DNA of 64,000 nt. Origin: Eledone cirrhosa (taxonomy: Eukaryota). The position numbers and the translations under genes are program-made. Within the stretch, counting starts at the first letter, position 1. Each line of letters begins with the position of its first letter. Below are positions 28,101 to 56,602 of the stretch, in pieces. The stretch is taken from positions 1 through 64,000 of the forward strand of contig CAXHJY010000322.1 in NCBI GenBank assembly GCA_964016885.1, in the 5' to 3' direction. The notes under the pieces are model-generated. The model did not search any database, had not been told where the DNA came from, and saw only the letters and a list, made by a program, of their open reading frames with translations.

Positions 28101-31100
28101 CACTAGCATAGCTACCTTCCACACTAACATAGCTACCTTCCACACTAACATAGCTACCTTCCACAATTACAATTACAAAGCAACTTCCACACTAACATAG
28201 CTACCTTCCACTCTAACATAGCTACCTTCCACACTAACATACCTACCTTCCACACTAACATAGCTACCTTCCACTCTAACATAGCTACCTTCCATAGTAA
28301 CATAGCTACCTTCCACACTAACATAGCTACCTTCCACTCTAACATAGCTACCTTCCACTCTAACATAGCTACCTTCCACACTAACATGGCTACCTTCCAC
28401 TCTAACATAGCTACCTTCCACACTAACATAGCTACCTTCCTCACTAACATAGCTACCTTCCTCACTAACATAGCTGCCTTCCACACTAACATAGCTACCT
28501 TCCACACTAACATAGCTACCTTCCACACTAACATAGCTACCTTCCACACTAACATAGCTACCTTCCATGCTAACATAGGTACCTTCCACACTAACATGGC
28601 TACCTTCCACACTAACATAGCAACCTTCAACACTAACATAGTTACCTTCCACACTAACATAGCTACCTTCCACACTAACATAGCTACCTTCCAGTCTAAC
28701 ATAGCTACCTTCCACACTAACATAGCTACCTTCCACACTAATATAGCTACCTTCCAGTCTAAAATAGCTACCTTCCACACTAACATAGCTACCTTCCACA
28801 CTAACATAGCTACCTTCCACACTAACATAGCTACCTTCCACTCTAGCATGGCTACCTTCCACACTAACATAGCTACCTTCCACACTAAATAGCTACATTC
28901 CACATTAACATAGCTACCTTCCACAATTACAAAGCAACTTCCACACTAAAATAGCTACCTTCCACTCTAGCATAGCTACCTTCCACACTAACATACCTAC
29001 CTTCCACACTAACATAGCTACCTTCCACTCTAACATAGCTACCTTCCACACTAACATAGCTACCTTCCACTCTAACATAGCTACCTTCCACTCTAACATA
29101 GCTACCTTCCACACTAACATAGCTACCTTCCACACTAACATAGTTACCTTCCACTCTAACATAGCTACCTTCCACACTAACATAGTTACCTTCCTTGTTA
29201 ACATAGCTACCTTCCACACTAACATAGCTACCTTCCACACTAACATAGCTACCTTCCACACTAACATACCTACCTTCCACACTAACATAGCTACCTTCCA
29301 CACTAACATAGTTACCTTCCACTCTAACATAGCTACCTTCCACACTAACATAGTTACCTTCCTTGTTAACATAGCTACCTTCCACACTAACATACCTACC
29401 TTCCACACTAACATAGCTACCTTCCACACTAACATAGTTACCTTCCATGTTAACATAGCTACCTTCCACACTAACATAGCTACCTTCCACACTAACATAG
29501 CTACCTTCCATGTTAACATAGCTACCTTCCTCACTAACATAGCTACCTTCCTTACTAACATAGCTACCTTCCTTACTAACATAGCTACCTTCCACACTAA
29601 CATAGCTACCTTCCACACTAACATAGCTACCTTCCACACTAACATAGCTACCTTCCACACCAACATAGCTACCTTCCACACTAACATAGCTACCTTCCAC
29701 ACTAACATGGCTACCTTCCACACTAACGTAGCTACCTTACACACTAACATAGCTACCTCCCAGACTAACATTGCTACCTTCCAGTCTAACATAGCTACCT
29801 TCCACACTAACATAGATACCTTCCACTCTAACATAGATACCTTCCACTCTAACATAGTTACCTTCCACACTAACATAGTTACCTTCCATGTTAACAGAGC
29901 TACTTTCCACACTAACATAGCTACCTTCCACACTAACATAGCTACCTTCCACACTAACATATCTACCTTCCACACTAACATATCTACCTTCCACACTAAC
30001 ATAGCTACCTTCCACACTAACATAGCTACCTTCCACTCTATCATAGCTACCTTCCACACTAAAATAGCTACCTTCCACACTAACATACCTACCTTCCACA
30101 CTAACATACCTACCTTCCACACTAACATAGCTACCTTCTACACTAACATGGCTACCTTCCACACTAACATGGCTACCTTCCACACTAACATGGCTACCTT
30201 CCACACTAACATGGCTACCTTCCACACTAACATAGCTACCTTCCACACTAACATAGCTACCTTCCATAATAACATAGCTACCTTCCACACTAACATAGCT
30301 ACCTTCCATAATAACATAGCTACCTTCCACACTAACATAGCTACCTTCCACACTAACATAGCTACCCTCCACACTAACATAGCTACCTTCCACACTAACA
30401 TAGCTACCTTCCACTCTAACATAGCTACCTTCCACTCTAACATGGCTACCTTCCACTCTAACGTAGCTACCTTCCACACTAACATAGCTACCTTCCACAT
30501 TAACATAGTTACCTTCCACACTAACATAGCTACCTTCCAATCTAACATAGCTACCTTCCACACTAACATGGCTACCCTCCACACTAACATAGCTACCTTC
30601 CAGTCTAACATAGCTACCTTCCAGACTAACATAGCTACCTTCCACACTAACATAGCTACCTTCCACACTAACATAGCTACCTTCCAGTCTAACATAGCTA
30701 CCTTCCAGTCTAACATAGCTACCTTCCACACTAACATAGCTACCTTCCACACTAACATAGCTACCTTCCACACTAACATAGCTACCTTCCACACTAACAT
30801 AGCTACCTTCCACACTAACATAACTATCTTCCACACTAACATAGCTACCCTCCACACTAACATAGCTACCTTCCAGTCTAACATAGCTACCTTCCACACT
30901 AACATAGCTACCTTCCACACTAACATAGCTACCTTCCAGTCTAACATAGCTACCTTCCACACTAACATGGCTACCCTCCACACTAACATAGCTACCTTCT
31001 TGTCTAACATAGCTACCTTCCACACTAACATAGCTACCTTCCACACTAACATAGCTACCTTCCAGTCTAACATAGCTACCTTCCAGTCTAACATAGCTAC

Positions 31101-34100
31101 CTTCCACACTAACATAGCTACCTTCCACACTAACATAGCTACCTTCCACACTAACATAGCTACCTTCCACACTAACATAGCTACCTTCCACACTAACATA
31201 ACTATCTTCCACACTAACATAGCTACCCTCCACACTAACATAGCTACCTTCCAGTCTAACATAGCTACCTTCCACACTAACATAGCTACCTTCCTGTCTA
31301 ACATAGCTACCTTCCACACTAACATAACTACCTTTCACACTAACATACCTACCTTCCACACTAACATACCTACCTTCCACACTAACATAGTTACCTTCCA
31401 CACTAACATAGTTACCTTCCACACTAACATAGCTACCTTCCACTCTATCATAGCTACCTTCCCAACTAACATAGCTGCCTTCCACACTAACATAGCTTCT
31501 TTCCACACTAACATTGCTGCCTTCCACACTAACATAGCTACCTTCCACACTAACATAGCTACCTTCCACTCTAACATAGTTACCTTCCACACTAACATAG
31601 CTACCTTCCACACTAACATAGCTACCTTCCACACTAACATAGCTACCTTCCAGTCTAACATAGCTACCTTCCACACTAACATGGCTACCCTCCACACTAA
31701 CATAGCTACCTTCTTGTCTAACATAGCTACCTTCCACACTAACATAGCTACCTTCCACACTAACATAGCTACCTTCCAGTCTAACATAGCTACCTTCCAG
31801 TCTAACATAGCTACCTTCCACACTAACATAGCTACCTTCCACACTAACATAGCTACCTTCCACACTAACATAGCTACCTTCCACACTAACATAGCTACCT
31901 TCCACACTAACATAACTATCTTCCACACTAACATAGCTACCCTCCACACTAACATAGCTACCTTCCAGTCTAACATAGCTACCTTCCACACTAACATAGC
32001 TACCTTCCTGTCTAACATAGCTACCTTCCACACTAACATAACTACCTTTCACACTAACATACCTACCTTCCACACTAACATACCTACCTTCCACACTAAC
32101 ATAGTTACCTTCCACACTAACATAGTTACCTTCCACACTAACATAGCTACCTTCCACTCTATCATAGCTACCTTCCCAACTAACATAGCTGCCTTCCACA
32201 CTAACATAGCTTCTTTCCACACTAACATTGCTGCCTTCCACACTAACATAGCTACCTTCCACACTAACATAGCTACCTTCCACTCTAACATAGTTACCTT
32301 CCACACTAACATAGCTACCTTCCACACTAACATAGCTACCTTCCACACTAACATAGCTACCTTCCACACTAACATAGCTACCATGCACTTTAACATAGCT
32401 ACCTTCCACACTAACATAGCTATCTTCCACTCTAACATAGCTACCTTCCACTCTAACATAGCTACCTTCCACACTAACATAGCTACCTTCCACACTAACA
32501 TAGCTACCTTCCACACTAACATAGCTACCTTCCACTCTAACATAGCTACCTTCCACACTAACATAGCTACCTTCCAGACTAACATAGCTACCTTCCACTC
32601 TAAGATAGCTACCTTCCACACTAGCATAGCTACCTTCCACACTAACATAGCTACCTTCCACACTAACATAGCTACCTTCCACAATTGCAATTACAAAGCA
32701 ACTTCCACACTAACATAGCTACCTTCCACTCTAACATAGCTACCTTCCACACTAACATACCTACCTTCCACACTAACATAGCTACCTTCCACTCTAACAT
32801 AGCTACCTTCCATAGTAACATAGCTACCTTCCACACTAACATAGCTACCTTCCACTCTAACATAGCTACCTTCCACTCTAACATAGCTACCTTCCACACT
32901 AACATGGCTACCTTCCACTCTAACATAGCTACCTTCCACACTAACATAGCTACCTTCCTCACTAACATAGCTACCTTCCTCACTAACATAGCTGCCTTCC
33001 ACACTAACATAGCTACCTTCCACACTAACATAGCTACCTTCCACACTAACATAGCTACCTTCCACACTAACATAGCTACCTTCCATGCTAACATAGGTAC
33101 CTTCCACACTAACATGGCTACCTTCCACACTAACATAGCAACCTTCAACACTAACATAGTTACCTTCCACACTAACATAGCTACCTTCCACACTAACATA
33201 GCTACCTTCCAGTCTAACATAGCTACCTTCCACACTAACATAGCTACCTTCCACACTAATATAGCTACCTTCCAGTCTAAAATAGCTACCTTCCACACTA
33301 ACATAGCTACCTTCCACACTAACATAGCTACCTTCCACACTAACATAGCTACCTTCCACTCTAGCATGGCTACCTTCCACACTAACATAGCTACCTTCCA
33401 CACTAAATAGCTACATTCCACATTAACATAGCTACCTTCCACAATTACAAAGCAACTTCCACACTAACATAGCTACCTTCCACTCTAGCATAGCTACCTT
33501 CCACACTAACATACCTACCTTCCACACTAACATAGCTACCTTCCACTCTAACATAGCTACCTTCCACACTAACATAGCTACCTTCCACTCTAACATAGCT
33601 ACCTTCCACACTAACATAGCTACCTTCCACACTAACATAGTTACCTTCCACACTAACATGGCTACCTTCCACTCTAACATAGCTACCTTCCACACTAACA
33701 TAGTTACCTTCCTTGTTAACATAGCTACCTTCCACACTAACATAGCTACCTTCCACACTAACATAGCTACCTTCCACACTAACATACCTACCTTCCACAC
33801 TAACATACCTACCTTCCACACTAACATAGCTACCTTCCACACTAACATAGTTACCTTCCATGTTAACATAGCTACCTTCCACACTAACATAGCTACCTTC
33901 CACACTAACATGGCTACCTTCCACACTAACATAGCTACCTTCTACACTAACATGGCTACCTTCCACACTAACATGGCTACCTTCCACACTAACATGGCTA
34001 CCTTCCACACTAACATGGCTACCTTCCACACTAACATAGCTACCTTCCACACTAACATAGCTACCTTCCATAATAACATAGCTACCTTCCACACTAACAT

Positions 34101-34760
34101 AGCTACCTTCCATACTAACATAGCTACCTTCCACACTAACATAGCTACCTTCCACACTAACATAGCTACCCTCCACACTAACATAGCTACCTTCCACACT
34201 AACATAGCTACCTTCCACTCTAACATAGCTACCTTCCACTCTAACATGGCTACCTTCCACTCTAACGTAGCTACCTTCCACACTAACATAGCTACCTTCC
34301 ACATTAACATAGTTACCTTCCACACTAACATAGCTACCTTCCAGTCTAACATAGCTACCTTCCACACTAACATGGCTACCCTCCACACTAACATAGCTAC
34401 CTTCCAGTCTAACATAGCTACCTTCCAGACTAACATAGCTACCTTCCACACTAACATAGCTACCTTCCACACTAACATAGCTACCTTCCAGTCTAACATA
34501 GCTACCTTCCAGTCTAACATAGCTACCTTCCCAACTAACATAGCTGCCTTCCACACTAACATAGCTTCTTTCCACACTAACATTGCTGCCTTCCACACTA
34601 ACATAGCTACCTTCCACACTAACATAGCTACCTTCCACTCTAACATAGTTACCTTCCACACTAACATAGCTACCTTCCACACTAACATAGCTACCTTCCA
34701 CACTAACATAGCTACCTTCCACACTAACATAGCTGCCTTCCACACTAACATAGTAACATA
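25177..34760. repeat. 21-bp minisatellite (CCACACTAACATAGCTACCTT), ~455 copies
   Basis: 21-nt period; accounts for all the VWKVAML, EGSYVSV and ATFHTNI ORFs. Confidence 0.99.
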
Positions 34761-34835
34761 GGTATCTTCCATGCTAACATAGGTATATATTATATACAAT
34801 GCTTCAAGCAATCTAGAAAATATAGAGATAATAAT

Positions 34836-34941
34836 AATTGTTTCTACTTTTGGCACAAGGCCAGCAATTATTCCAGTGTATTACTGGTACTTTATTTTAT
34901 CGACCCCGTCAGTATGAAAGGCTAAGTTAACCTCGGTGGGA
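34836..34941 (-). mobile_element. Truncated tRNA-derived core SINE
   Basis: Reverse complement of the 48270-48445 SINE body (ctttcat.c..acggggtcgataaaataaagtaccagtaat..actg...ggccttgtgccaaaagtagaaacaattatt). Confidence 0.8.
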
Positions 34942-34973
34942 TTTATAATAATAATAATCTTATTTGTTTGTAG

Positions 34974-35115
34974 TTACAATGGTTTTCCTGAATTGAAGCC
35001 AGAATTATTCCTGTTAAAGAAATGCAGCCCCGTGTGTTTAGCTGGTAAACAGTCGGCGTGTCCCCACAGTCCTATAGCGAGACGCACTAAACAGGAAGTA
35101 CGGATGGCACAGAAG
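34974..35115 (+). CDS. DENND4: DENND4/CRAG exon (S-YNGFPELKPELF...SPIARRTKQEVRMAQK)
   Basis: ttgtttgtag acceptor, AAG|gtaac donor; conserved 'YNGFP.L' and 'RRTKQE' motifs of DENND4. Confidence 0.93.
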
Positions 35116-37830: not shown

Positions 37831-38077
37831 TCATGAGAGTTAGCATGAATACCCTTGTACCAATGCTTTTACACATTGTTTGTACCACTTACCATGTCAT
37901 CTGGAAATGTAAGGCAAGGAGGTTTTGGTTTGAAGTTTATATGTTTTATATGTTTGAGTCGGTGAATTGATAAAGATGTTAGATTGTCAGGCAGAATACT
38001 TTACATTCTATTTAACCTTTCTCTCTCCTCACAACTGTAGTGTTGTTCCTATCTTAGAGTTTGTTATTTTACTTCAG

Positions 38078-38411
38078 GCTGTTCTTGAGAGCAAATGGCC
38101 AAGTGATACCAAGAATGGTCTACTGTTATGGAAGAAACTGCGTAATGTGATCACAGCTGTTGCACAATTGCGAAAGGGGTTGTTGCACCAACGAAGTAGC
38201 ACATCGTACTGCTCAAACTCTGAAAGTGATTACGACCAAGTCAGTCACACTAGCAATGACAGCTGTATAGATGAGGCTGCAGTCAGTGGGAGCACTGATG
38301 TTAACAGTGGTGCTACTGTGGGTAATAGAATTATTACCAAAACAGATCTTGTTTCTGATACGGTTGTGAATTGTTCTAATAAAGTAGCCAATGAGGAAAG
38401 AATGAGTACAG
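38078..38411 (+). CDS. DENND4: DENND4/CRAG exon (AVLESKWPS...WKKLRNVITAVAQLRK...ERMST-G)
   Basis: ttacttcag acceptor, G|gtaagt donor; continues 'NKAVLES.WPS..W.KLRNV'. Confidence 0.94.
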
Positions 38412-39142
38412 GTAAGTGACACACACATCCTTTTCTTCTCAGCTACTTTGGTTTCATTTTTGTTGTCTTTTATAATTTTATGTTACTTTTACTGAAAAGA
38501 AAACTTTTATTTTAATAGCTCCTACATTTTGCTTTCATATTTAGTTCAGGGCTGAAACACTTGCTCATCTGAGAGTTTCTTACCACTTTCATAGTTAAAA
38601 TCAACTATAAAATTATGTTTCATTTATTTTATATTTCTTAGTTTTGAAGATAATTTGCCTTTCATCCATTTAAGGTTGATAAAAAAAATAACTAGTAGAG
38701 GACTTTTCCTCCATCTCTTTCTCACTTCCTCTCTATCACTTCTTTCTCACTTCCTCTCTATCACTTCTTTCTCCTTATGGAAGAAATCAGGTATGTTCAT
38801 TTTAAACCTAACCTGCCCAAGAAATGCTGTGTCTTAACAACAGCCCTATAACCCTCACCAGGTTTTATGGGTCCATACATGCAATGAAGAGGATAAAATT
38901 CACAGAATTCCAGTCACATTTGTTCAATCTTAACTGGATCACTTCAGTGTGATGTTCAACTCAATATAATTTATGATAACATACAAGAAGACTGCAGTGA
39001 ATTAAGTGTATGCCTCACATTAACTCTTAACATTTTCTAATGCATTTGTGGCTGAGTAATAATATTATAATAATATTATTAATATTTGATTTGTTTGCAA
39101 GCATTCAGCTTCATAACGCTGTGTTCTAGATGACTATCATCC

Positions 39143-41783: not shown

Positions 41784-42152
41784 CCAAGAACTTCATTGTT
41801 TGTCTTCTTTCTGTGAATAAAATAATTAAGTTTAAAATTCTGAGAATGTTACCAAATATGGCTGGTTTCTGAAGATGGCTGGAGGGTAGAATGGACAAAA
41901 TATTGAGTCTTTAACAACCAAGATGAAGACATTAGTTTGAATAAATCATTGAATTACAATGATAATTTCTTATCTCAAAAAAAAAGAAAAAAAAAAAGGA
42001 AATGCAGATAAAATTTTCCAGGCTTATATGAAGTGGTTTGTGACTTTTTAGTGTGTTTTGTGTATGTGTTAATGCATGCTTATGTGATATTTGTGATATT
42101 GTGAAACTGTGCTTCTGGTCTCCATGCTTTGAATGTGTTCTGATGGTTTCAG

Positions 42153-42341
42153 GGGGAGCATCAGATAGAGGTTATAGCTCTATGACACAGGAAGATGCCA
42201 AGACTCTATATGGAGCCCTTTCCTCAGCAGAACAGGCTCAGAATAAAATTAATAATTCCAGTAAGACAAAAGATTCCAAACACTCTCGTTCCAGTATACG
42301 CTGGAAGATCAGAAGTAAAAGTACAAATGAAGATTTATCAG
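42153..42341 (+). CDS. DENND4: DENND4/CRAG exon (G-GASDRGYSSMTQEDAK...RSKSTNEDLS-G)
   Basis: gtttcag acceptor, phase 1; 'GG.SD.GY.S' motif of DENND4; donor CAG|gtgaaa chosen for phase compatibility and is less certain. Confidence 0.82.
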
Positions 42342-42745
42342 GTGAAAGAGATTCAATTGATTTTCCAGAATATCTTCTGTTGCCTTCTACACTGACACTA
42401 ACTTCCAATCTATATCTTCATCACAATTATTCTCCATGTTCTCTAAACAACTCGTATTTATTTATGTTTTAGTTGTGGATTAAATATCTATCTATCTATT
42501 TATATTTATTTGTTGCTAAATATTTCCATAAGAAATACTAAAAATCATTTTTATTTATTTTATATTCTTTCAAAGAATTAGCTATATATATCTTCCCTTA
42601 TATATATATATGCAGAGGTTATATTTAATTTGTTGGGATTCAACAAGCTTAAACATTTTTATAACTGATATAAAGCACTCAACTGAAAAGTGGAGTAAAT
42701 ATACAATATATTAACAAATGGAAGCTATATTTATAAAACAATATA

Positions 42746-42811
42746 TATTTGATTATATATATTTCAAGGGCCACCAAGGCAAATTATGGTGCGCTTTCAT
42801 CAGATAAAATA
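42746..42811 (-). ncRNA. Minimal type I hammerhead ribozyme motif
   Basis: Minus: TATTTTAT-CTGATGA-aagcgcacca..tggtggccctt-GAAA-TATATA-TA-ATCAAATA. Confidence 0.75.
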
Positions 42812-42990
42812 CAATACAGATTTGTTTTATAAATAAATATTGACATACCCTGAAAAAAGATAGCCTTAACGGTTGGAGCTTCCGGGATAGCTTCCTGATA
42901 GCTTCCTGTGACTATCCAGGAAGCTCCAACCGTTAAGGTTGTCTTTTTTCAGGGTATGTCAATATTTATTTATAAAACAAATCTGTATTG

Positions 42991-43056
42991 TATTTTATCT
43001 GATGAAAGCACACCATAATTTGCCTTGGAGGCCCTTGAAATATGTATAATAAAATA
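42991..43056 (+). ncRNA. Minimal type I hammerhead ribozyme motif
   Basis: TATTTTAT(stem I)-CTGATGA-stem II-GAAA-TATGTA-TA-ATAAAATA(stem I'); 8-bp perfect stem I, near-palindromic stem III. Confidence 0.75.
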
Positions 43057-43202
43057 TATATGGTTTTATAAATATAGCTTCCATTTGTTAATATATTGTA
43101 TATATATATATATAGTAATAATAATAAATGCGAAGACTAAAATCCAAAGAGGGCTCGATAAGGATAAATATATATCAAGTATATATGAACCCTAGAGCAA
43201 AT

Positions 43203-43335
43203 ATTTATTAAAATAACAGATTAAAGTTTAAGCAAAGAATTGCTGCTTTCACCCTTAACGGGATCTTCTGAAGATCCCGTTAAGGGTGAAAGGAGCGATT
43301 CTTTGCTTAAACTTTATTCTGTTATTTTAATAAAT
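43203..43335. repeat. Fold-back module 2: 66-bp arms, 1-nt loop; CTGAAGA-ccc..ggg-GAAA at the apex
   Basis: Symmetric about 43269 (gggatcttc-t-gaagatccc). Confidence 0.9.
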
Positions 43336-43427
43336 AAATATATATATGAGGTGTGTCAGGGGTAACCACAGTTAAAAAAGGTACTCAATATATTGGTAGA
43401 GTATAGACATCTTTATTATATATAGAA

Positions 43428-43526
43428 ATGACTTCTACAGGACTAGGACTGTTTCATTCGTATGAAATTAAGACTATCCTCAATAATTTTGTACGAGTGA
43501 AAAAGTTCTAGTCCTGTAGAAGTCAT
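43428..43526. repeat. Fold-back module 3: ~43-bp arms containing a GAAACAGTC half-hammerhead
   Basis: atgacttctacaggactag... / ...ctagtcctgtagaagtcat followed by (TA)n. Confidence 0.85.
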
Positions 43527-43595
43527 ATATATATATATATATATATATATCACATAAGAAACGGAGGATCAGTGGTGCGACGAATTAGATTTATT

Positions 43596-43692
43596 AGACA
43601 TATTACAATTGTTTCTCTGGTGACCAGCTCGAGGCATGATCAATGCAATGATTGAACCTGACTCTGAAATCGCAAGTTCCTCAGATACGTCT
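43596..43692 (-). ncRNA. Type I hammerhead motif with long (62-nt) stem II region
   Basis: Minus: AGACGTAT-CTGAGGA-[62 nt]-GAAA-CAATTG-TA-ATATGTCT-aataaa; palindromic stem III, 8-bp stem I. Confidence 0.7.
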
Positions 43693-43755
43693 CGATTCTA
43701 CGAAGCAGAGTTTCCAAATGTCCAGTTACACCCACGGCCTTCACTCACCAGCTTT

Positions 43756-44590
43756 AGGCAGGTTGTACGATGCCTGCATACGAACAGCAATGCTGCATGG
43801 CAGTGAGACCTGGGCATTGTGTGCAGAGGATATACGCAGACTAGAGAGGAACGAAGCTTGCATGCTCCGCTGGATGTGTAACAGTAATATACGTGAACGG
43901 CAAAGCATAAACGAACTAAGGAATAAATTAGAGATAAGAGGGATCAGATGTTGTTTACTCGAGAGAAGGCTACGTTGGTATGGACACGTGATGCGCATGA
44001 AAGTCGATAGCTGTATAACAAAGTGCAGGGCAATAAAGATAGACGGTAGTCACGGAATAGGCAGACCTAGAAAAACCTGGGACGAGCTGATAAACTCCGA
44101 CATCACACACTTACACCTCTCCAAGACAATGTCACTGGACCGAGACCTTTGGCGGTACTCAGTAACAGAGAAGACCCGCCTTACCTAAATATATAGTAAA
44201 ACCTACTCCAGCCAGTAGGCATCTCTAACAAAATACACCCCGTCCCACCACCCCCACCCCCACCCGATCCACACCACCCCGTTCTATGTAAAGTTATGTT
44301 GGTGCCGCGCCATCGAGGCCGAAACAAATGAGATCGTGTAGGTGTCACGACAAAAAAACACACAGTCCACGCTGTAATGTGGCCGTGTAGGCAACACGGT
44401 AAAAACCTCCCAGACCCACACTGTAAATGTGGTTGGTGTTAGGAAGGGCATCCAACTGTAGAAAACCTGCCAGACAGTCCTATGCGAGCAAGACAATCAC
44501 TCTTGCCTCAAGTGGGACTACCCCCGTCCAAACCCATGCAAGCGTGGAACACGGACGTTAAACGTTGATGATGATGATGATGATGATGAT
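43756..44590 (+). mobile_element. 5'-truncated RTE-clade LINE (copy 1) with 3'UTR and (GAT)n tail
   Basis: GRLYDACIRTAMLHGSETW...RLRWYGHVMR...GRPRKTW; tail gatgatgat runs into (TA)n. Confidence 0.92.
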
Positions 44591-44612
44591 ATATACACAC
44601 ATATACACGTAC

Positions 44613-44646
<34 letters not shown>

Positions 44647-44657
44647 GTACACATATA

Positions 44658-44707
<50 letters not shown>

Positions 44708-44712
44708 TGTGT
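44591..44712. repeat. (TA)n/(CA)n microsatellite
   Basis: Direct inspection. Confidence 0.9.
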
Positions 44713-44947
44713 GTTGATGCCCTAAGGACAGACACTGGTCTGTTGGAGACGCAGGACATGGCAGTGATGATGAGGGGCAGAGACCGCTGGAGAGAACTCA
44801 TCCATGGATCTCGTGAATTTTATCTGCCTAGATAAATAGATATATATATATATAACAAAGAGGGTGTGGTAAGATACCAGGTGGACTATAACGCACCAGA
44901 GTACTCAATACTTTGGGTAGTAGAGTGGGTAATAGGAATATAGTCAA

Positions 44948-45040
44948 GACCCCTACGGCTGAGCTCCAGCTGTTTCGACAGCTAGATCCGAACTGTTCAG
45001 ATCTAGCTGTCGAAACGGCCAGAGCTCAGCTGTCGGGGTC
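44948..45040. repeat. Fold-back module 4: 46-bp arms, 1-nt loop, CGAAAC motif
   Basis: Symmetric about 44994 (gtttcgacagctagatc.gaac-t-gttc.gatctagctgtcgaaac). Confidence 0.88.
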
Positions 45041-45064
45041 CTGAATCTTTTCATATATATATAC

Positions 45065-45106
<42 letters not shown>

Positions 45107-45128
45107 TGAAACAGTAAGCAAGTTACGA

Positions 45129-45237
45129 AAATTAGAAATAGAAGCTTTCACCGTATTTTACTAAAGAAATTTTAGCTAAAATCAGGCTAAAATTTCTTTA
45201 GTAAAAAAAATATGGCGAATGCTTCTATTTCTAATTT
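45129..45237. repeat. Fold-back module 5: ~50-bp arms, GAAAGCTTC motif on the minus strand
   Basis: aattagaaatagaagc..actaaagaaattttagc / gctaaaatttctttagt..gcttctatttctaatt. Confidence 0.88.
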
Positions 45238-45272
45238 ACATATATATAAAAACAATTACAACAGTGACATAA

Positions 45273-45322
45273 ACAGGTACTCAAGTTTCGTTGGGTTCTG
45301 GGCCCCAATTTCTTCAGCCTGT
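45273..45322 (-). ncRNA. Minimal type I hammerhead ribozyme motif
   Basis: Minus: ACAGG-CTGAAGA-aaTTGGGgcccagaaCCCAAc-GAAA-CTTGAG-TA-CCTGT. Confidence 0.8.
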
Positions 45323-45571
45323 CATGAGAAAAATGAAAAAAGTTTTGTTGGGTTCTGGGCCCCCATTTTTTCAGCCTGTCATGAGAAAAATGAAAAACAA
45401 AGATGGCCGCCTATGGTTGATTGTGCTTTACCTTGATTGTGCTTTCCCTTGATTGTGCTTTCCCTTGATTGTGCTTTACTTTGATTGTGCTTTCCCTATG
45501 GGGATATAACAAAAGAATGTGAAAGCACAATCAACCATAGGCAGCCATCTTTGTTTTTCATTTTTCTCATG

Positions 45572-45621
45572 ACAGGCTGAAGAAATTGAGGCCCAGAACC
45601 CAACGAAACTTGAGTACCTGT
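45572..45621 (+). ncRNA. Minimal type I hammerhead ribozyme motif (predicted cut after GUA at 45616)
   Basis: ACAGG-CTGAAGA-aaTTGaGgcccagaaCCCAAc-GAAA-CTTGAG-TA-CCTGT. Confidence 0.78.
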
Positions 45622-46129
45622 TTATGTCATTGTTGTAATTATTTATACTAAACTCATCTTATGGACTGAGTGCTCTTACTCTTGGATATTTCCACTTAAC
45701 TTTTACTTCAGTATATATAAGCAGGAATGAAGTCAAGGTTGCACCATAAATATATTTTATTAACATATGACATTGTTTCAATATCTATCAGCTCAGCGTA
45801 TGATCATAATGATTTGGACGTGGCTATATATATATAAAACAAAGAGGGTTTGGTAAGATACCAGGTGGACCATAATACATATATACATATATATATATAT
45901 ATAGCAGATACCATCAAAATCGGGCAGTCACAAAGCACTCACTGATGTGAAATGTTAATACATTTTCATCCAGAGTAAAGACAAAGTTAAGAAAGTGTGA
46001 CACCAAGAATAAAACCGGGTGTATGTATGTGGCCATAGTTAATACAACAACAACAATAAATAGAAACCTGCCACAAACCACCCTTGGTTCTATGAAAGTG
46101 TTAAAGGGTTCCTATATAAAATCTTTACT

Positions 46130-48268
46130 ATTTTTTAAATTCCATGTTTCTAACACACATTGGCATACCTACAAAGTCAGAAAACAGCACAGCCCCCATG
46201 ACTTTCAGAAACTTTTCTTTTTCACGCTCAGAGTTGCTGAAGCATGGAACAAACTACCTGCATCAGTTGTTAGCTGTTGAGACACTGCATCCTTTAAAAC
46301 CTCCATGGAACAAACTACCTGCATCAGTTGTTAGCTGTCGAGACACTGCATCCTTTAAAACCTCCATGGAACAAACTACCTGCATCAGTTGTTAGCTGTC
46401 GAGACACTGCATCCTTTAAAACCTACTTGGAACAAACTACCTGCATCAGTTGTTAGCTGTTGAGACATTACATCGTTTAAAACCTCCATTGAACAAACTA
46501 CCTGCATCAGTTCTTAGCTGACTAGACACTGCATCCTTTAAAACCTCCATGGAACAAACTACCAGCATCAGTTATTAGCTGTTGAGACACTGCATCCTTT
46601 AAAACCCCCATGGAACAAACTCCCTGCATCAGTTGTTAGCTGCTGAGACACTGCATCCTTTAAAACCCCCATGGAACAAACTACCTGCATCAGTTGTTAG
46701 CTGTCGAGACACTGCATCCTTTAAAACCTCCAAGAAAAAAACTACCTGCATCCTTTAAAACCTCCAAGGAACAAACTACCTGCATCAGCTGTTAGCTGTG
46801 AAGACACTGCATCCTTTAAAACCTCCATGGAACAAACTCCATGCATCAGCTGTTAGCTGTTGAGACACTGCATCCTTTAAAGCCGCCATGGAACAAACTA
46901 CCTGCATCAGTTGTTAGCTGCTGAGACACTGCATCCTTTAAAACCTCCATGGAACAAACTACCTGCATCAGTTCTTAGCTGTCGAGACACTACATCCTTT
47001 AAAACCTCCAGGGAACAAACTACCTGCATCCTTTAAAACCTCCATGGAACAAACTACCTGCATCAGTTGTTAGCTGTCGAGACACTGCATCCTTTAAAAC
47101 TTCCATGGAACAAACTACCTGCATCAGTTCTTAGCTGACGAGACATTGCATCCTTTAAAACCTCCAGGGAACAAACTACCTGCATCAGTTCTTAGCTGTC
47201 GGGACACTGCATCCTTTAAAACCTTCATGGAACAAACTACCTGCATCAGTTGTTAGCTGTCGAGACACTGCATCCTTTAAAACCTCCATGGAACAAACTA
47301 CCTGCATCAGCTGTTAGCTGTTGAGATACTGCATCCTTTAAAACCTCCATAGAACAAACTACCTGCATCAGTTGTTAGCTGTGAAGACACTGCATCCTTT
47401 AAAACCTCCATGGAACAAACTCCATGCATCAGCTGTTAGCTGTTGAGACACTGCATCCTTTAAAGCCTCCATGGAACAAACTACCTGCATCAGTTGTTAG
47501 CTGCTGAGACACTGCATCCTTTAAAACCTCCATGGAACAAACTACCTGCATCAGTTGTTAGCTGTCGAGACACTGCATCCTTTAAAACTTCCATGGAACA
47601 AACTACCTGCATTAGTTCTTAGCTGACGAGACATTGCATCCTTTAAAACCTCCAGGGAACAAACTACCTGCATCAGTTCTTAGCTGTCGGGACACTGCAT
47701 CCTTTAAAACCTTCATGGAACAAACTACCTGCATCAGTTGTTAGCTGTCAGGACACTGCATCCTTTAAAACCTCCATGGAACAAACTACCTGCATCAGTT
47801 CTTAGCTGACGAGACACTGCATCCTTTAAAACCTCCATGGAACAAACTACCTTCATCACTTATTAGCTGTTGAGACACTGCATCCTTTAAAACCTCCATG
47901 GAACAAACTACCTTCATCACTTATTAGCTGTTGAGACACTGCATCCTTTAAAACCTCCATGGAACAAACTACCTTCATCACTTATTAGCTGTTGAGACAC
48001 TGCATCCTTTAAAACCTCCATGGAACAAACTACCTTCATCACTTATTAGCTGTTGAGACACTGCATCCTTTGAAGCCTCCATGCTTCCTGAAATTAGCCA
48101 ACACTACACCTAATATTAGCCCTCCATACACACACACACATATCATGACTCATACACTGTTCACTTTCCTGACATTTGTACATTATTCTATGTACTATAC
48201 ATACACCTTTGATGAGTTGGAGTGCACCTGAGCACTGTACACAATAATTTCAATATTATTATTATAAT
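46130..48268 (+). mobile_element. CR1/L2-group LINE 3' end, interrupted by expansion of its own 61-bp segment
   Basis: HTYKVRKQHS..FFTLRVAEAWNKLPASVVSCRDTASFKTSM|LPEISQHYT*, then a 3'UTR ending in (ATT)n; 'RV..WN.LP..VV....FK' is the CR1/L2 ORF2 terminus. Confidence 0.75.
46243..48083. repeat. 61-bp tandem repeat, ~30 copies
   Basis: GGAACAAACTACCTGCATCAGTTGTTAGCTGTCGAGACACTGCATCCTTTAAAACCTCCAT. Confidence 0.97.
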
Positions 48269-48269
48269 A

Positions 48270-48445
48270 AGGCGATGGAGTGGCAGTATCGGTAGAGTGT
48301 TAGCCAGCATGCTTTGCAGCATAGAGTTCAAATCCCGACGAGGTTAACTTTGCCTTTCATCCTTACGGGGTCGATAAAATAAAGTACCAGTAATGCACTG
48401 AAATAATTGCTAGCCTTGTGCCAAAAGTAGAAACAATTATTATTA
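48270..48445 (+). mobile_element. tRNA-derived SINE with conserved central core
   Basis: A box TGGCAGTATCGG, B box GAGTTCAAATCC, core GCCTTTCATCCTTACGGGGTCGATAAAATAAAGTACCAG, (ATT)n tail; several related copies in the window. Confidence 0.85.
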
Positions 48446-49696
48446 TTATAATTTTAAAATCTTTTGTTATTTTATAATCACCATTTTCACAGTAAAGGCG
48501 TTACCTCACATAATATGCCACATAACATTTACATTACTCTATATATACTATTGTATTTTCATGGTAAAGGCTTTACCTCACATAATACCTGACATAACAT
48601 TTACATTACTCTATATATACTATTGTATTTTCACAGTAAAGGCTTTACCTCACATAATATCCCACATAACATTTACATTACTCTATATATACTATTGTAT
48701 TTTCACAGTAAAGGCTTTACCTCACATAATACCTGATATAACATTTATATTACTCTATATATACTATTGTATTTTCACAGTAAAGGCTTTACCTCACATA
48801 ATATGCCACATAACATTTACATTACTCTATATATACTATTGTATTTTCATGGTAAAGGCTTTACCTCACATAATATCTCACATAACATTTACATTACTCT
48901 ATATATACTATTGTATTTTCACAGTAAAGGCTTTACCTCACATAATATCTCGCATAACATTTACATTACTCTATATATACTATTGTATTTTCACAGTAAA
49001 GGCTTTACCTCACATATCTCACATAACATTTACATTACTCTATATATACTATTGTATTTTCACAGTAAAGGCCTTACCTCACATAATATCTCACATAACA
49101 TTCACATTACTCTATATATACTATTGTATTTTCACAGTAAAGGCTTTACCTCACATAATATCCCACATAACATTTACATTACTCTATATATACTATTGTA
49201 TTTTCACAGTAAAGGCTTTACCTCACATAATATCTCACATAACATTTACATTACTCTATATATACTATTGTATTTTCACAGTAAAGGCTTTACCTCACAT
49301 AATACCTCACATAACATTTACATTACTCTATATATACTATTGTATTTTCACATTAAAGGCTTTACCTCACATAATATCCCACATAACATTTACATTACTC
49401 TATATATACTATTGTATTTTCACAGTAAAGGCTTTACCTCACATAATATCTCACATAACATTTACATTACTCTATATATACTATTGTATTTTCACAGTAA
49501 AGGCTTTACCTCACATAATACCTCACATAACATTTACATTACTCTATATATACTATTGTATTTTCACATTAAAGGCTTTACCTCACATAATATCCCACAT
49601 AATATTTACACTACTCTATATATACTATTGTATTTTCACAGTAAAGGCTTTACCCTACATAATATCTCGCATAACATTTACATTACTCTATATATA

Positions 49697-50367
49697 ACAA
49701 AGTGCAGGGCAATAAAGATAGACGGTAGCCACGGAATAGGCAGACCCAGAAAAACCTGGGAGTAGCTGATAAATTCCGACCTCACACACTTACACCTCTC
49801 CAAAACAATGTCACTGGACCGAGACCTTTGGCGGTACTCAGTAATAGACAAGACCCGCCTTACCTAAATACAAAGTAAAACCTACTACAGTCAGTAGGCA
49901 TCTCTACCAAAATACGCCCCCGTCCCACCACCCCCACCCCATCCACACCGCCCCTTTCAATGTAAAGTTATGTTGGTACCACACCATCCAGGCCGAAACA
50001 AAATGAGATCGTGTAGGTGTCACGACAAAAAACACACAGTTCACGCTGTAATGTGGCCGTGTAGGCAACACGGTAAAAACCTCCCAGCCCCACACTATAA
50101 ATGTGGTTGGTGTTAGGAAGGGCATCCAGCTGTAGAAAACCCGCCAGACACTCCACGCTGTAATGTGGCCGTGTAGGCAACACGGTAAAAACCTCCCAGC
50201 CCCACACTGTAAATGTGGTTGGTGTTAGGAAGGGCATCCAGCTGTAGAAAACCCGCCAGATAGTCCTATGCGAGCAAGATAATCACTCTTGCCTCAAGTG
50301 GGAAAACCCCCGTCCAAACCCATGCAAGCGTGGAACACGGACGTTAAACGTTGATGATGATGATGAT
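49697..50367 (+). mobile_element. 5'-truncated RTE LINE (copy 2) with ~110-bp tandem duplication in the 3'UTR
   Basis: Similar to 44018-44590; (GAT)n tail; satellite resumes in register. Confidence 0.92.
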
Positions 50368-50442
50368 ACTATTGTATTTTCACAGTAAAGGCTTTACCTC
50401 ACATAATATATCACATAACATTTACATTACTCTATATATACT

Positions 50443-52017
50443 CGATCATCTGGTGGGCCCTTAGAAAACTAGGTGTTGATGAATGGCTTGTGAGAGCTAT
50501 ACAAACCATGTATAAAGAAACAGTCAGCAAGGTTAGAATTAACAACGAATATAGTGAAGATTTTAGCGTAAAAGTTGGTGTTCATCAGGGCTCCGTCCTT
50601 AGCCCCCTACTATTTATTATTGCCCTTCAGGCTATAACAGAGGAGTTCAAGACCGGCTGCCCATGGGAACTCCTATATGCAGATGATCTAACACTCATAG
50701 CTGAATCAATGGCTGAACTAGAGAAGAAATTCCAGACATGGAAGCATGGCCTAGAATCAAAAGGCCTTAAAGTTAACTTGTCTAAGACTAAAGTTCTAGT
50801 TTGTAGGAAGGAAAATAGGGCACCGGTCCCATCTGGGAAATGGCCATGCTCAGTGTGTAGGAAAGGAGTAGGTAGAAACTCCATTTTAAGTCCCAAATGC
50901 AAAGTATGGGTACATAAAAGATGTAGTGGGATCACAGGTAAGCTAACTAAGAATATAGATTTTACATGTGGCCGGTGCTCTGGTGCAATAAGTAGCAACA
51001 AGAGCCCACAGAATACTAACTCATTCCATTGCACAGATGGTTCTATAGAAATAGTGGACAGCTTCCGTTACCTGGGTGATAAAATCAGCAGTGGGGGAGG
51101 GTGCTCTGAAAGTACAGTAGCTAGAGTCAGAACGGGATGGAAAAAGTTCAGAGAGCTTATACCACTATTGGCCGCTAAAGGGTTCTCTCTAAAAATGAAA
51201 GGCAGGCTGTATGATGCCTGCATTCGAACAGCAATGTTACATGGCAGTGAGACCTGGGCATTGTGTGCAGAGGATATACGCAGACTGGAGAGAAATGAAG
51301 CTTGCATGCTCTGCTGGATGTGTAATAGTAATATACGTGAACGGCAAAGCATAAACGTACTAAGGGAGAAATTAGAAATAAGAGGGATCAGATGTTGTTT
51401 ACTCGAGAGAAGACTATGTTGGTATGGTCACGTGATGCGCATGAAAGACGACAGCTGTATAAAAAAGTGCAGGGCAATAAAAATAGACGGTAGCCACGGA
51501 GTAGGCAGACCCAGAAAAACCTGGGACGACTTGATAATTCCGACCTCACACACTTACACCTCTCCAAGACAATGTCACTGGACCGAGAGCTTTGGCACTA
51601 CACAGTAATAGAGAAGACCCGCCTTACCTAAGTACAAAGTGAAACCTACTACAGTCAGTAGGCATCTCTAACAAAATACACCCCCGTCCCACTACCCACA
51701 CCCCATCCACACCATCCCTTTCAATGTAAAGTTATGTTGGTGTCACAACATCCAGCCCGAAACAAATGAGATCGTGTAGGTGTCACGACAAAAAACACAC
51801 AGTTTACACTGTAATGTGGCCGTGTAGGCAACACGGTAAAAACCTCCCAGTCCACACTGTAAATGTGGTTGGTGTTAGGAAGGGCATCCAGCTGTAGAAT
51901 ACCCGCCAGACTGTCCTATGCGAGCAAGACAACCACTCTTGCCTCAAGTGGGAAAACTCCCGTCCAGACCCATGCAAGCGTGGAATATGGACGTTAAACG
52001 ATGATGATGATGATGAT
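50443..52017 (+). mobile_element. 5'-truncated RTE LINE (copy 3): RT C-terminal half, Cys-rich finger, 3'UTR, (GAT)n tail
   Basis: ORF 50490-51608 with GVHQGSVLSP, LLYADD, FRYLG and GRPRKTW; frameshift near the C-terminus; ATACT on both flanks. Confidence 0.95.
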
Positions 52018-54133
52018 ACTATTGTATTTTCACAGTAAACGCTTTACCTCACATAATATCTCACATAACATTTACTTTACTCTATATATACTATTGTATT
52101 TTCACAGTAAAGGCTTTACCTCACATAATACTTACTTTACTCTATATATACTATTGTATTTTCACAGTAAAGGTTTTACCTCACATAATACTTACTTTAC
52201 TCTATATATACTATTGTATTTTCACAGTAAAGGTTTTACCTCACATAACATGTACATTACTCTACATATACTATTGTATTTTCACAGTAAAGGCTTTACC
52301 TCACATAATATCTCACATAACATTTACATTACTCTATATATACTATTATATTTTCACAGCACACGTTTTACCTCACATAATACCTGACATAACATTTACA
52401 TTACTCTATAAATACTATTGTATTTTCACAGTAAAGGCTTTACCTCACATAACATTTACATTACTCTTTAGATATACTATTGTATTTTCACAGTAAAGGC
52501 TTTACCTCACATAATACTTACTTTACTCTATACATACTATTGTATTTTCACAGTAAAGGCTTTGCCTTACACCATATCTCACATAACATTTACATTACTC
52601 TATATATGCTATTGTATTTTCACAGTAAAGGCTTTACCTCCCATATCTCACATAACATTTACATTACTCTATATATGCTATTGTATTTTCACAGTAACGA
52701 CTTTACCTCACATAATATCTCACATAACATTTACATTACTCTATATATACTATTGTATTTTCACAGTAAAGGCTTTACCTCACATAATATCCCACATAAC
52801 ATTTACATTACTCTATATATACTATTGTATTTTCACAGTAAAGACTTTACCCCACATAATATTTACATTACTCTTTATAGATACTATTGTATTTTCACAG
52901 TAAAGGCTTTACCTCACATAATATCTCACATAATATTTACATTACTCTATATATACTATTTTATTTTCACAGTAAAGACTTTACCTCCCATATCTCACAT
53001 AACATTTACATTACTCTATATATGCTATTGTATTTTCGCAGTAAAGACTTTACCTCACATAATATCTCACATAACATTTACATTACTCTATATATATTAT
53101 TGTATTTTCACAGTAAAGTCTTTACCTCACATAATATCTTACATAACATTTACATTACTCTATATATACTATTGTATTTTCACAGTAAATGCTTTACCCC
53201 ACATAACATTTACATTACTCTTTATATATACTATTGTATTTTCACAGTAAAGGCGTTCCCTCACATAATATCTCACATAATATTTACATTACTCTATATA
53301 TACTATTGTATTTTCACTGTAAAGGCTTTACCTCACATAATATCTCACATAACATTTACATTACTCTCTATATACTATTGTATTTTCACAGTAAAGGCTT
53401 TACCTCACATAATACCTGACAACATTTACATTACTCTATATATACTATTGTATTTTCACAGTAAAGGCTTTACCTCACATAACATTTACATTACTCTATA
53501 TATACTATTATATTTTCACAGTAAAGGCTTTACTTCACATAATATCTCACACAACCTTTACATTACTCTATATATACTATTGTATTTTCACAGTAAAGGC
53601 TTTACCTCACATATCTCACATAACATTTACATTACTCTATATATACTATTGTATTTTCACAGTAAAGGCTTTACCTCACATAATATCTCACATTACTCTA
53701 TATATACTATGGTATTTTCACAGTAAAGGCTTTACCTTGCATAATATCTCGCACAACATTTACATTACTCTATATATACTATTGTATTTTCACAGTAAAG
53801 GCTTTAGCTTACATAATATCTCATATAACATTTACATTACTCTATATATACTATGGTATTTTCACAGTAAAGACTTTACCTCACATAATATCTCACATAA
53901 CATTTACATTACTCTATATATACTATTATATTTTCACAGTAAAGGCTTTAGCTTACATGATTATCTCACATAATATCGAATCTATGAGATTTTGATATTA
54001 TCTATTTTGAGAACAATACCTTAACTTAAGTATGAGCAGCCAGTTTGAACAGGAAGAGATGAGAGAATTCTGGCTGGATACTGCCGGTTTAAATGCTAAT
54101 GGCTTAATATTATTATTAAATTAATATTAATAA

Positions 54134-54927
54134 ATATTTCCTTTGAGCAGAAAACAAATAGTGTGTATGGGTAAAATGGCCATAGGATTTTTACCTAGAA
54201 GGTCCCCCTCCAAGGTACAAGTCTGGGCAAGGATGTTTGTGGAAGACCTGCAGTCAACTATGAATACCAGTCTCTCTTCTCCATGCCATCGATGGTGTCC
54301 AAGGGAAAAGCAAATAAATAAATAAATAAATATTCAAATCCCGCCGAGGTTGACTTTGCCTTTCATCCTTACGGGGTCGATAAAATAAAGTACCAGTAAT
54401 GCACTGGGTAATTGCTGGCCTTGTGCCTAAAGTAGAAACAATTATTATTTTGCCAATTTCAACATCTATTTAAAAGAAATACACCAAGATATCTGGAGTG
54501 CTTTATAGTGAAACTGTTTTTATTGTATTTTAGAAACATTTTTACAGAATATTTTAAATATTCTCAGTATTTACTGTTACATGGCTTAGTGGTTAGTGTT
54601 GGGCCTTTAATTGGGAGTTTGTGATTTTGAATCTCGCACCAGGTGGTGTGTTCTGTTCTTAAGCAAGACATGTTATTTCACATTGATCCAGTTTACTCAG
54701 CTTTAGAAATGAGTCAAGTCATCCCTGGGGCCAAGCTGTATTTGCCATTGCTTTTCCCTTGGACACCATCGATGGCATGGAGAAGAGAGACTGGTATTCA
54801 TAGTTGACTGCAGGTCTTCCACAAACATCCTTGCCCAGACTTGTACCTTGGAGGGGGACCTTCTAGGTAAAAATCCTATGGCCATTTTACCCATACACAC
54901 TATTTGTTTTCTGCTCAAAGGAAATAT
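54134..54927. repeat. 180-bp identical inverted repeat pair (54134-54313 / 54748-54927)
   Basis: Base-by-base reverse complement; identical peptides on opposite strands in the ORF track. Confidence 0.95.
54332..54448 (+). mobile_element. 5'-truncated core SINE
   Basis: ttcaaatcccgccgaggttgactttgcctttcatccttacggggtcgataaaataaagtaccag... Confidence 0.85.
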
Positions 54928-55107
54928 ACACAAATTTGAGAAACTTGTTGAAATTTTATAAAACTGATGAAATGGTAAAAGTTATTAAGTAATAGAGTTA
55001 GGAAATTATACTCTAGACGACACTTAAAACATTTTAGATATTAAATTATTAAAACTTCCTGAAAGCCTTCTTCACTGATGAGGATTTAGAAAAGCATCTA
55101 AACATGT

Positions 55108-55326
55108 TAAGCTGGGCAGTATTGGTAGAATATTGGACAACATGCTTTCAGGTATATAGTTTAAGGTCCTTTACATTCCGAAGGCAAATCCAACCAAAGC
55201 TAGCTTTACTTTTTACCTTTACGGGGTCAATAAAATAATGTACCAGTAATGCACTGGGGATAATTAAATAACTTTACCCTCCCGTCCAAATTGATGGCCT
55301 TGTGCCAAATGTAGAAACAATTATTA
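55108..55326 (+). mobile_element. Older core SINE copy
   Basis: ggcagtattggtaga...acggggtcaataaaataatgtaccagtaatgcactgggg...ggccttgtgccaaatgtagaaacaattatt. Confidence 0.75.
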
Positions 55327-56449
55327 GATCAAAGAATAATTCTAGTTAGTTTGTAAGCATTTAATATTTTTCTCAACTATATCTATTACATAAAACCAAA
55401 AATTGACTTCAATTAATTCTTAACGTAATAGGTTATTGTAATATTTTTTATATTACATTTTTCTGAATGCAGTGTCTCAATTTTGACTCTCTCTCTCTCT
55501 CTCTCAGCTCTGATTAATTTTGTGGCTACAAAACATTGGTTCTTAACTCTTTTTTCTTCTCAGCACTCCCAGATATTTTCCCATATTTTAAAATTGCTCT
55601 AGAGTAAGAACATTTCCTATATAAGGGGATTATTCGAGACCCTTGTGTATTAACTAAAGAAGTTTTACTTGTCCTTCAATCATATTTAAGGGACATAACT
55701 TGTTTCCTCAAATAAATGCCTATTTCATTTAGTTTTTATACGATGAAGTATTGGTAAATAATTACTATTTATTTTTATTACTTCTTTTGATATTAATCTT
55801 GATTTTTAATTGATTATTTTACCAACCTGGATAAAAGTTACTTTAAAAAAGCAACTAAAAAAAAATATTTTTTTTTTATTGAAATCTTAGATATTTTTCT
55901 TGGTTTGGGATTTAAATACATTTTCTATAAAATAATTCACTTTAAGTAGATTTTGAAAGCACTAAATGATGAAAAAAATGAAAGTTATGTAAATACATGG
56001 AAAAGACGTATCTAAATCTAGGACCAGAAAAAACAAAGCTAATCTTTCAACTAAGACTTTGTAAATTCATTGCTTCATTATTCCAGACTTTTTTCCAGGA
56101 TGGTAAAGAAAATAATAAGAAGCAAGTAAAAATTAAATTAAAGGTGACAGTTCACCCCCCCCCCCCCCCCCCCACCATTTCACTCATCACATTTCAATTC
56201 ACTCTTATAAAACAACCAAATATAGAAATTATTATTTCTATCTGTTCATGTTATTTAGTTGTAATTAGTCTCTCTTACATTTAATCTGTTAACGACAAGA
56301 TACTATTAATAATTATTTCTAATTTATGCAGTTATTAATTATTAGAGTTCATTAAAGCAAGAAAGGTTTATTACTTTAATGAGACATTTTTTTAAAATCT
56401 TATTTTTTAAAAGAATATATATATATATGTATTTTTTTTTGTTTTGTAG

Positions 56450-56602
56450 GTGTGGGAAATTGTTCCAGCAACCCTGATAATTCTCATTCTAATGGTAACT
56501 TTGCTGTGTCACAGTTCCGAACTAGAATTGGCAGCATTATGAGAAAATCAGCAAAAAATGTCACCAATGCTGAAAGTCTGGAAACCTTAAAATCAAACTT
56601 TT
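56450..56602 (+). CDS. DENND4: DENND4/CRAG exon (G-VGNCSS...FRTRIGSIMRKS...LKSNF)
   Basis: Long T tract + tag acceptor, T|gtaaat donor; phase 1/1 fits both neighbours; low sequence conservation. Confidence 0.75.

Follow-up and report, generated by a model that had tools for sequence, protein, structure and literature searches.

How can a conserved gene tolerate a hammerhead ribozyme motif in the sense orientation within one of its introns, and does a mirrored antisense copy of the same motif act as a lock upon it? We addressed this question at a hairpin of Eledone cirrhosa, in a window of 64,000 nucleotides (contig CAXHJY010000322.1, positions 1 to 64,000). A preliminary description of this DNA had proposed that the hairpin carries one hammerhead motif on each arm and that the antisense arm silences the sense ribozyme.

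The host intron and its hairpins

The exon at 37958-38416 finds its best homologues, with 88% identity, in the DENND4 proteins (C-myc promoter-binding protein) of two octopuses, Octopus sinensis and O. vulgaris. By tblastn with the Octopus homologues, the DENND4 exons lie on the + strand from 24015 to 58626, and those that flank the hairpin occupy 38075-38413 and 56476-56601. A spliced contig of run X4 joins 38140-38408 to 42150-42344, and the borders of the intron that follows are in frame (GT at 42342, AG at 56448-56449). Given the extra exon at about 42152-42341, which X4 links to 38408, the hairpin is hosted in an intron of approximately 14.1 kb (Table 1). Because the DENND4 exons map to the + strand, the copy at 45572-45621 is the sense one. 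Homologue match, tblastn exons and splice contig therefore bear out the earlier placement of this motif in a DENND4 intron and on the strand of the host. With the O. sinensis and O. vulgaris proteins as queries, tblastn gave no match to the exon at 42152-42341 (+), which is spliced in X4 and is likely an alternative one.

Table 1. Features of the DENND4 intron and of its hairpins (positions in the window)
Feature	Position	Strand	Basis
DENND4 intron housing the hairpin, ~14.1 kb	42342..56449	+	tblastn exons, X4 spliced contig, in-frame GT/AG
Module 1: another high-copy repeat arranged as a head-to-head hairpin, one dimer-type hammerhead motif per arm	42696..43106		repeat and motif scans
Left arm: tailless 5'-truncated 3' end (pLTR) of a Penelope-like element (PLE), antisense to DENND4	45247..45340	-	repeat comparison
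Complete hammerhead motif, antisense to DENND4, full TTGGG/CCCAA helix II	45273..45322	-	0 mismatches in genome search
Incomplete tandem duplication of the left arm (period of 57 nt)	45330..45429	-	repeat comparison
Hairpin loop: upstream pLTR sequence, four 16-nt tandem copies	45417..45516	-	repeat comparison
Right arm: 5'-truncated PLE 3' end with tail, then TA run	45521..45711	+	repeat comparison
Sense hammerhead motif	45572..45621	+	motif scan, folding
PLE tail, on one arm only	45648..45711	+	exactly one tailed arm in 35/36 hairpins; tail described in 10.1101/2021.04.23.441226 and PMC11167929

Both motifs lie, at the positions first described, on the arms of inverted repeats that pair 45247-45340 with 45554-45647 (96%) and 45340-45429 with 45522-45611 (94%). 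The sense motif reads ACAGG CTGAAGA AATTGAGGCCCAGAACCCAAC GAAA CTTGAG TA CCTGT and differs by one base from the antisense copy. This base is relevant, as the TTGGG/CCCAA stem initially ascribed to the sense copy belongs to the antisense one. The sense copy has TTGAG, with A at 45589 (G>A in helix II), and is thus the worse formed of the pair. Its helix I is built by 45572-45576 with 45617-45621, followed by CTGAAGA at 45577-45583 and GAAA at 45605-45608; the palindromic helix III spans 45608-45615 and the nominal cut falls after A45616. Both copies share an A.C mismatch at 10.1/11.1 with an extra A at the base of helix II, and both have a helix III of 2 bp, composed of the palindromic ACTTGAGT, which is self-complementary with wobbles. 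The left arm ends approximately 74 nt past the motif start, as do 47 of the 80 index copies analyzed below, and the motif of its duplicate (45330-45379, -) is broken (CTGAAAA, no GAAA, no helix III). A generic hammerhead scan of the window returned three good motifs and one poor, and no Rfam match reached the gathering score in the whole window.

The tail resembles an intron of 77 nt (45635-45711, +): it starts near GTAATT, ends in CTTAAC-TTTTACTTCAG and shows a 5' site, a branch point, a pyrimidine tract and AG. The Penelope pLTR contains a 75-nt intron. Judging from these letters, the tail in sense could bring cryptic splice signals into the host intron.

Other repeats populate the same intron. 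Module 1 shares the arrangement of the hairpin, as previously noted, with arms at 42696-42890 and 42912-43106, a + motif at 42989-43058 whose site falls after 43048, and one helix I mismatch in the - arm. Its summed contig depth is around 50,000-150,000, compared to around 8 for unique DNA. Module 1 is presumably of PLE origin. Four further short perfect hairpins (43202-43336, 43417-43537, 44932-45056 and 45125-45225) are likely the 3' ends of other PLE families truncated within the motif; at least two of them carry GAAA-NNN-TC half-hammerheads or a degenerate motif. The intron also has a LINE-type reverse transcriptase frame with a PHD finger (50367-51608, +; Pfam RVT_1) and a 3' fragment of the same LINE-type family (43652-44188, +). 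Long tandem arrays occur at 46121-48200, 48339-49800, 1-24000 and 25000-35000, several of them within DENND4 introns; periods of 61 and 72 nt were seen, and elsewhere the composition profile reveals strongly skewed arrays.

A dispersed Penelope-like family and its insertion geometry

We searched the 3.0 Gb genome for the motif with up to two mismatches and obtained 175 matches, compared to 0 with the reversed control, which excludes a chance motif. Other searches for the family returned 300 exact matches to the 3' half and 726 to the degenerate 5' half with its variants. In the longer copies, which follow the order RT-like, GIY-YIG-like, hammerhead and tail, the upstream frame displays GIY-YIG-like motifs and a cysteine-rich linker. 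When loci were picked by the endonuclease-like (EN-like) protein alone, the family motif followed downstream, on the same strand and at a distance of 224-741 nt, in 13 out of 20. RT-like sequence, EN-like sequence and motif are in line at two loci (L078 and L191), and RT-like sequence lies likewise upstream at a third (L075), all of them broken copies. The RT label of these pieces relies on motifs read by eye, and so does the IYQA...YVG motif with C/C/H residues in the EN-like frame. The ESM Atlas associates this frame (0.97) to a cluster named GIY-YIG, which is a lead only. The family and structure libraries (Pfam, NCBIfam and PDB) recognised neither the EN-like nor the RT-like pieces of the family, and no full-length element was found among the loci fetched. 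On sequence grounds, the hairpin is the 3' end (pLTR) of a PLE of the EN+ type; its provisional 'Neptune/Nematis type' label derives from the zinc-finger linker (Craig et al.) and from motifs read by eye, not from a tree. Core variants were read across the genome and at the loci L183 and L191. The commonest core of the family, CTGAATGAG, has one extra core base and an intact G10.1-C11.1 pair. The core of the window subfamily, CTGAAGAAA, has canonical spacing with the A.C mismatch, and intermediates between the two exist.

To describe the geometry of the insertions we considered the 87 matches with 0 or 1 mismatch, leaving out the 88 with two mismatches. They correspond to 80 insertions, 79 of which were fetched in addition to the window. 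A close inverted copy is present in 36 of the 80, a hairpin share that is an upper estimate since hairpins have two chances of being sampled. This copy is located 5' of the index copy in 36 out of 36 cases, one additional 3'-side inverted match being a duplicated neighbour, and all hairpins except one have exactly one tailed arm (35 out of 36). A first tally of 44 solo copies overlooked short partial arms, and the stricter tally is 36 out of 80. In a looser, reference-free recount of the 80 insertions within 10 kb, a full partner was present for 34 and a partial one for 10, and the other 36 had no partner. Partners were 5' in 42 of 44 cases, and the two exceptions (L109 and L140) are separate pieces.

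Most index copies are 5' truncated, 66 out of 80 beginning at most 30 nt upstream of the motif. Their 5' ends cluster 20-30 nt upstream of it, in a T-rich tract, with nine at -26 (80 insertions, L081-L159 and the window). The arms of the hairpins often break at nearly the same place, and at the identical one in 7 out of 36, as expected if the cDNA folded back during its synthesis. The 3' ends of the copies fall near +74 and +149. In an Anolis PLE, two 3' ends derive from two internal start sites of reverse transcription on the uncleaved RNA (PMC11167929), and by analogy such a scheme fits the two ends of this family. Besides the broken duplicate in the window, a direct tandem copy near the index motif was detected in 1 of the 80 insertions. 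At this locus (L129, G000:C22:19031700-19031993), two intact sense motifs lie in direct tandem at a distance of 246 nt. No other insertion has such a pair, and a dimer hammerhead could form in this arrangement.

An inverted 5'-truncated copy and a one-sided tail are typical of PLEs (Craig et al., 10.1101/2021.04.23.441226). The antisense-first order of the arms therefore follows from the head-to-head insertion geometry of PLEs. Since a head-to-head pair reads antisense-first from either direction, this order is silent on the host gene.

Predicted activity of the sense motif and role of the antisense arm

According to the preliminary description, the sense copy could cut the DENND4 intron. Among the features of a type I hammerhead, the core CUGANGA, GAAA and NUH is present together with the closing helix I. 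A paired 10.1-11.1 with a stable helix II is absent, due to the A.C in both copies and to the further substitution at 45589 in the sense copy. Also absent is a helix III stable in the monomer: its 2 bp have a predicted probability of around 1e-4 in both copies. The predicted hammerhead fold has -2.9 kcal/mol in the sense copy, compared to -9.8 kcal/mol in the antisense copy and to -10.2 kcal/mol for the lowest-energy fold of the sense copy itself. ACTTGAGT is predicted to self-pair over 8 bp (-5.8 kcal/mol), and the lowest-energy form in the cofold of two sense motifs was not a clean dimer hammerhead.

In minimal PLE hammerheads, G-C at 10.1/11.1 is reported as highly conserved; a single one gave no cleavage in vitro and dimers gave little (PMC4209133). 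According to a review, PLE hammerheads whose helix III is short and palindromic probably have to dimerize, and their cleavage is slow even as dimers (PMC6765202). The Anolis PLE hammerhead cut in vitro only with the protein of the element, was dispensable for insertion and gave no RNA-seq ends at its site (PMC11167929). By contrast, the axolotl Amex2, which is type I with a 2-bp helix III, reached 22% monomer cleavage in 1 h (PMC7229834). Folding predictions and analogy with the published PLE hammerheads suggest that the sense hammerhead is likely inactive on its own.

The antisense arm had been proposed to be transcribed first and to capture the sense motif as it emerges. Folding predictions agree with this part of the proposal: once the transcript reaches 45616, 44 of the 45 nucleotides of the sense motif would be paired with the left arm, and the hammerhead fold inside the hairpin would cost 84 kcal/mol. 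The model indicates that the duplex probably forms physically in the pre-mRNA and is probably redundant as a lock. As the hammerhead is likely inactive alone, insertion itself likely produced the mirrored arm as a side effect, with no selection for a safety lock.

We then asked how the family bears on the second part of the proposal, that the lock is the reason why genes tolerate such insertions. The suggested check was a bias towards antisense-first order among intronic sense copies. The order was found in all 36 close hairpins and, being geometric, it is the same on either strand, so that the orientation of the hairpins cannot discriminate. The presence of a partner is unrelated to the integrity of the core, both in the looser recount of the 80 insertions (38 out of 69 intact and 6 out of 11 broken cores, P-value = 1.0) and for close inverted copies (31 out of 69 and 5 out of 11, respectively, P-value = 1.0). 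The share of single changes that fall in the core is as expected under neutrality (11 out of 54, expected fraction 0.236, P-value = 0.75). Moreover, 31 of the 80 insertions have an intact core with no antisense match in 10 kb.

To assign a gene context, we applied an ORF filter to 79 insertions, which returned 150 candidates, and scanned 40 of them in Pfam together with 5 transposon ORFs. Context was obtained for four loci, a number too small for statistics, and two of these were confirmed between exons. At L155, a sense copy with zero mismatches occupies an 870-nt intron of a conserved cephalopod gene, and 30 kb contain no antisense match. The sense copy at L107 has one mismatch and lies in an intron of calexcitin; in 40 kb, nothing matches the motif in antisense. 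These are the two unpaired copies that could be placed in introns; both are sense, and their core is equal to or better than that of the sense copy in the window. On these two copies, a rule that intact intronic sense copies are always or mostly paired does not hold, and the proposed reason for genic tolerance was not supported. In the remaining loci, a hairpin lies upstream of nesprin-like exons (L118), and a TPR exon is preceded by an antisense copy that is broken and unpaired (L092).

A second sample, chosen by the 3' end, comprised the first 30 of 471 pattern matches, corresponding to 28 insertions. Here, 7 of the 13 insertions with an intact core were in hairpins, compared to 4 of the other 15, a difference in the direction predicted by a lock and not significant (P-value = 0.25). 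When one 3'-side fragment was removed, the intact cores gave 6 out of 13 (P-value = 0.43). The pooled Fisher test on the 80 insertions and the 3'-end sample (P-value = 0.37) was set aside because the samples overlap. A literature search run mostly outside subscription journals and supplements retrieved no study in which intronic hammerheads of PLEs are locked by an antisense copy.

Explanations weighed and relation to known elements

Very probably, the hairpin arose when the 3' end of a PLE inserted twice, truncated and head-to-head, and its hammerhead is silent and would need a second sense copy or the protein of the element. In the scenario that we draw from the literature, reverse transcription would start at two sites beyond a hammerhead that is still uncleaved, so that some ends are short and others tailed; the inverted copy would be made during integration. 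The two arms are predicted to pair along their length in the pre-mRNA. This duplex would enclose the motif and act as a second, redundant block on the hammerhead. Tolerance in genes would then most likely come from slow or absent cleavage and not from a selected lock. Among the alternatives, it is unlikely, if still worth consideration, that slow monomer cleavage or protein-aided cleavage is suppressed here by the hairpin with no selection involved. The motif retains all canonical residues of CUGANGA, GAAA and GUA, the cleavage of a PLE hammerhead is aided by protein in vitro (PMC11167929) and the energy of the duplex would suffice; the loss of the normally conserved G-C at 10.1/11.1, the helix II substitution at 45589, the low probability of helix III and the failure of a single minimal hammerhead to cleave in vitro (PMC4209133) all argue against it. 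We consider it distinctly unlikely that weak cleavage in vivo slightly purges unpaired sense copies, making the inverted insertion a passive safety catch for genic insertions; if true, a modest excess of hairpins would be expected among intact sense intronic copies. Even less probable is that the sense hammerhead would cut the DENND4 pre-mRNA, that the upstream antisense arm holds it off, and that copies in genes survive selection only when locked in this way. Splicing can suffer from fast ribozymes in introns (Fong 2009, cited in PMC10919898), the predicted duplex exceeds the ribozyme fold by 84 kcal/mol and forms as the motif emerges, and the small 3'-end sample gives its non-significant trend. 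However, slow intronic ribozymes leave splicing unaffected (same source), the order of the arms is geometric, pairing is unlinked to core integrity in the larger sample, intact cores without an antisense match are frequent, and both unpaired intronic copies are sense. In addition, other hairpins of the same intron have partial or broken motifs and hence nothing to lock. Xenopus retrozymes are reported as under-represented in introns, in a work whose covered part did not analyze the strand (10.64898/2026.07.22.740005), which points to some selection on genic hammerhead elements elsewhere.

Two further readings are highly improbable. One is a DNA transposon of the MITE or foldback kind, with a hammerhead-like motif present by chance in its terminal inverted repeats, as the near-perfect inverted arms and TA-rich sites might suggest. 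The outer arm ends are, however, unequal in 35 out of 36 hairpins and the inner breakpoints vary; the 36 of 80 copies with no second arm and the long copies that run into RT-like and GIY-YIG-like sequence refute it. The other, to which we assign the lowest probability of all, is that ADAR opens the hairpin, the ribozyme cuts, and the processing of DENND4 is thereby regulated. Octopus RNA undergoes very high hyper-editing at near-perfect duplexes, which ADAR unwinds (PMC5625713), and the hairpin is therefore a likely ADAR substrate. Nonetheless, the idea that editing relaxes the lock did not survive simulation: with 25, 50 and 100% of editing, the hammerhead fold remained 68, 54 and 25 kcal/mol uphill, respectively. 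This model is rough, since it treats each edited A as unpairable, sparing the six core A, and so weakens the helices of the ribozyme as well. The chance that all six core A escape at 50% editing is 0.016. The base at the cleavage site is itself an A, and the NHH rule, which disfavours G-like bases in the cleavage triplet, would exclude its edited form (PMC3923133). In the model, editing is thus more likely to spoil the motif than to free it. The A>G and T>C differences in X4 contigs at the hairpin were rejected as signs of editing; they also appear in DNA runs and reflect other copies of the family, from which these contigs derive, and none of the contigs listed extends across the hairpin.

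The double insertion of a PLE 3' end finds close parallels in known systems. Dual minimal hammerheads on opposite strands, 100-700 bp apart, were reported in 2014 (Cervera and De la Pena, PMC4209133), and the pair described here is separated by approximately 300 bp. As in the pLTR hammerheads of that report, the motif is type I, with a short helix I, an extra nucleotide between 9 and 10.1 and a small palindromic helix III, and it occurs mostly in dispersed single copies from truncated PLEs. Unlike them, the window subfamily has A.C in place of the conserved G10.1-C11.1; the commonest sister form, CTGAATGAGTTGGG, restores G-C and has one extra core base. The main-text part of that report covered here describes no octopod family; its supplements, where mollusc families may be listed, stand apart. 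With the EN+ PLEs of the Neptune/Nematis type (10.1101/2021.04.23.441226), the family shares RT-like sequence followed by a putative C-terminal GIY-YIG-like domain with a CxC...CPL...C linker, the heavy 5' truncation, the inverted 5'-truncated copy beside the 5' end, the tail on one end only and the TA-rich insertion sites. Its tail is however around 65-75 nt long, compared to 30-40 nt in those elements. The Anolis Poseidon PLE (PAc; Frangieh et al. 2024, PMC11167929) also has two defined 3' ends downstream of an uncleaved hammerhead and AT-rich targets. It belongs to another clade and host, and dependence on the protein was demonstrated for PAc while it is inferred here.

The position of a self-cleaving-type motif in sense within a host intron recalls the HDV-like ribozyme of CPEB3 (PMC10919898) and the hammerhead of amniote RECK (PMC6155905). 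Those are single-copy, conserved and active, unlike the motif described here, which is one of hundreds of dispersed copies and whose core bears no sign of constraint. Non-LTR retrozymes (PMC7229834; 10.64898/2026.07.22.740005) are likewise short non-coding repeats with a PLE-related type I hammerhead, and they form head-to-tail tandem arrays that make circular RNA. We rejected this identity, as an intact direct tandem copy was detected only at L129. The class of element, the type of motif and the opposite-strand pair are therefore already published, and the family is one more family of PLE hammerheads.

Its variants of the core provide a natural series on the tolerance of the hammerhead core. 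If a lock operated at the level of populations, it would tie the geometry of transposon integration to tolerance in genes and would give a role to the thousands of minimal hammerheads found in genomes. Octopod introns are rich in such hairpins, which likely represent a large source of ADAR substrates and recur in scans.
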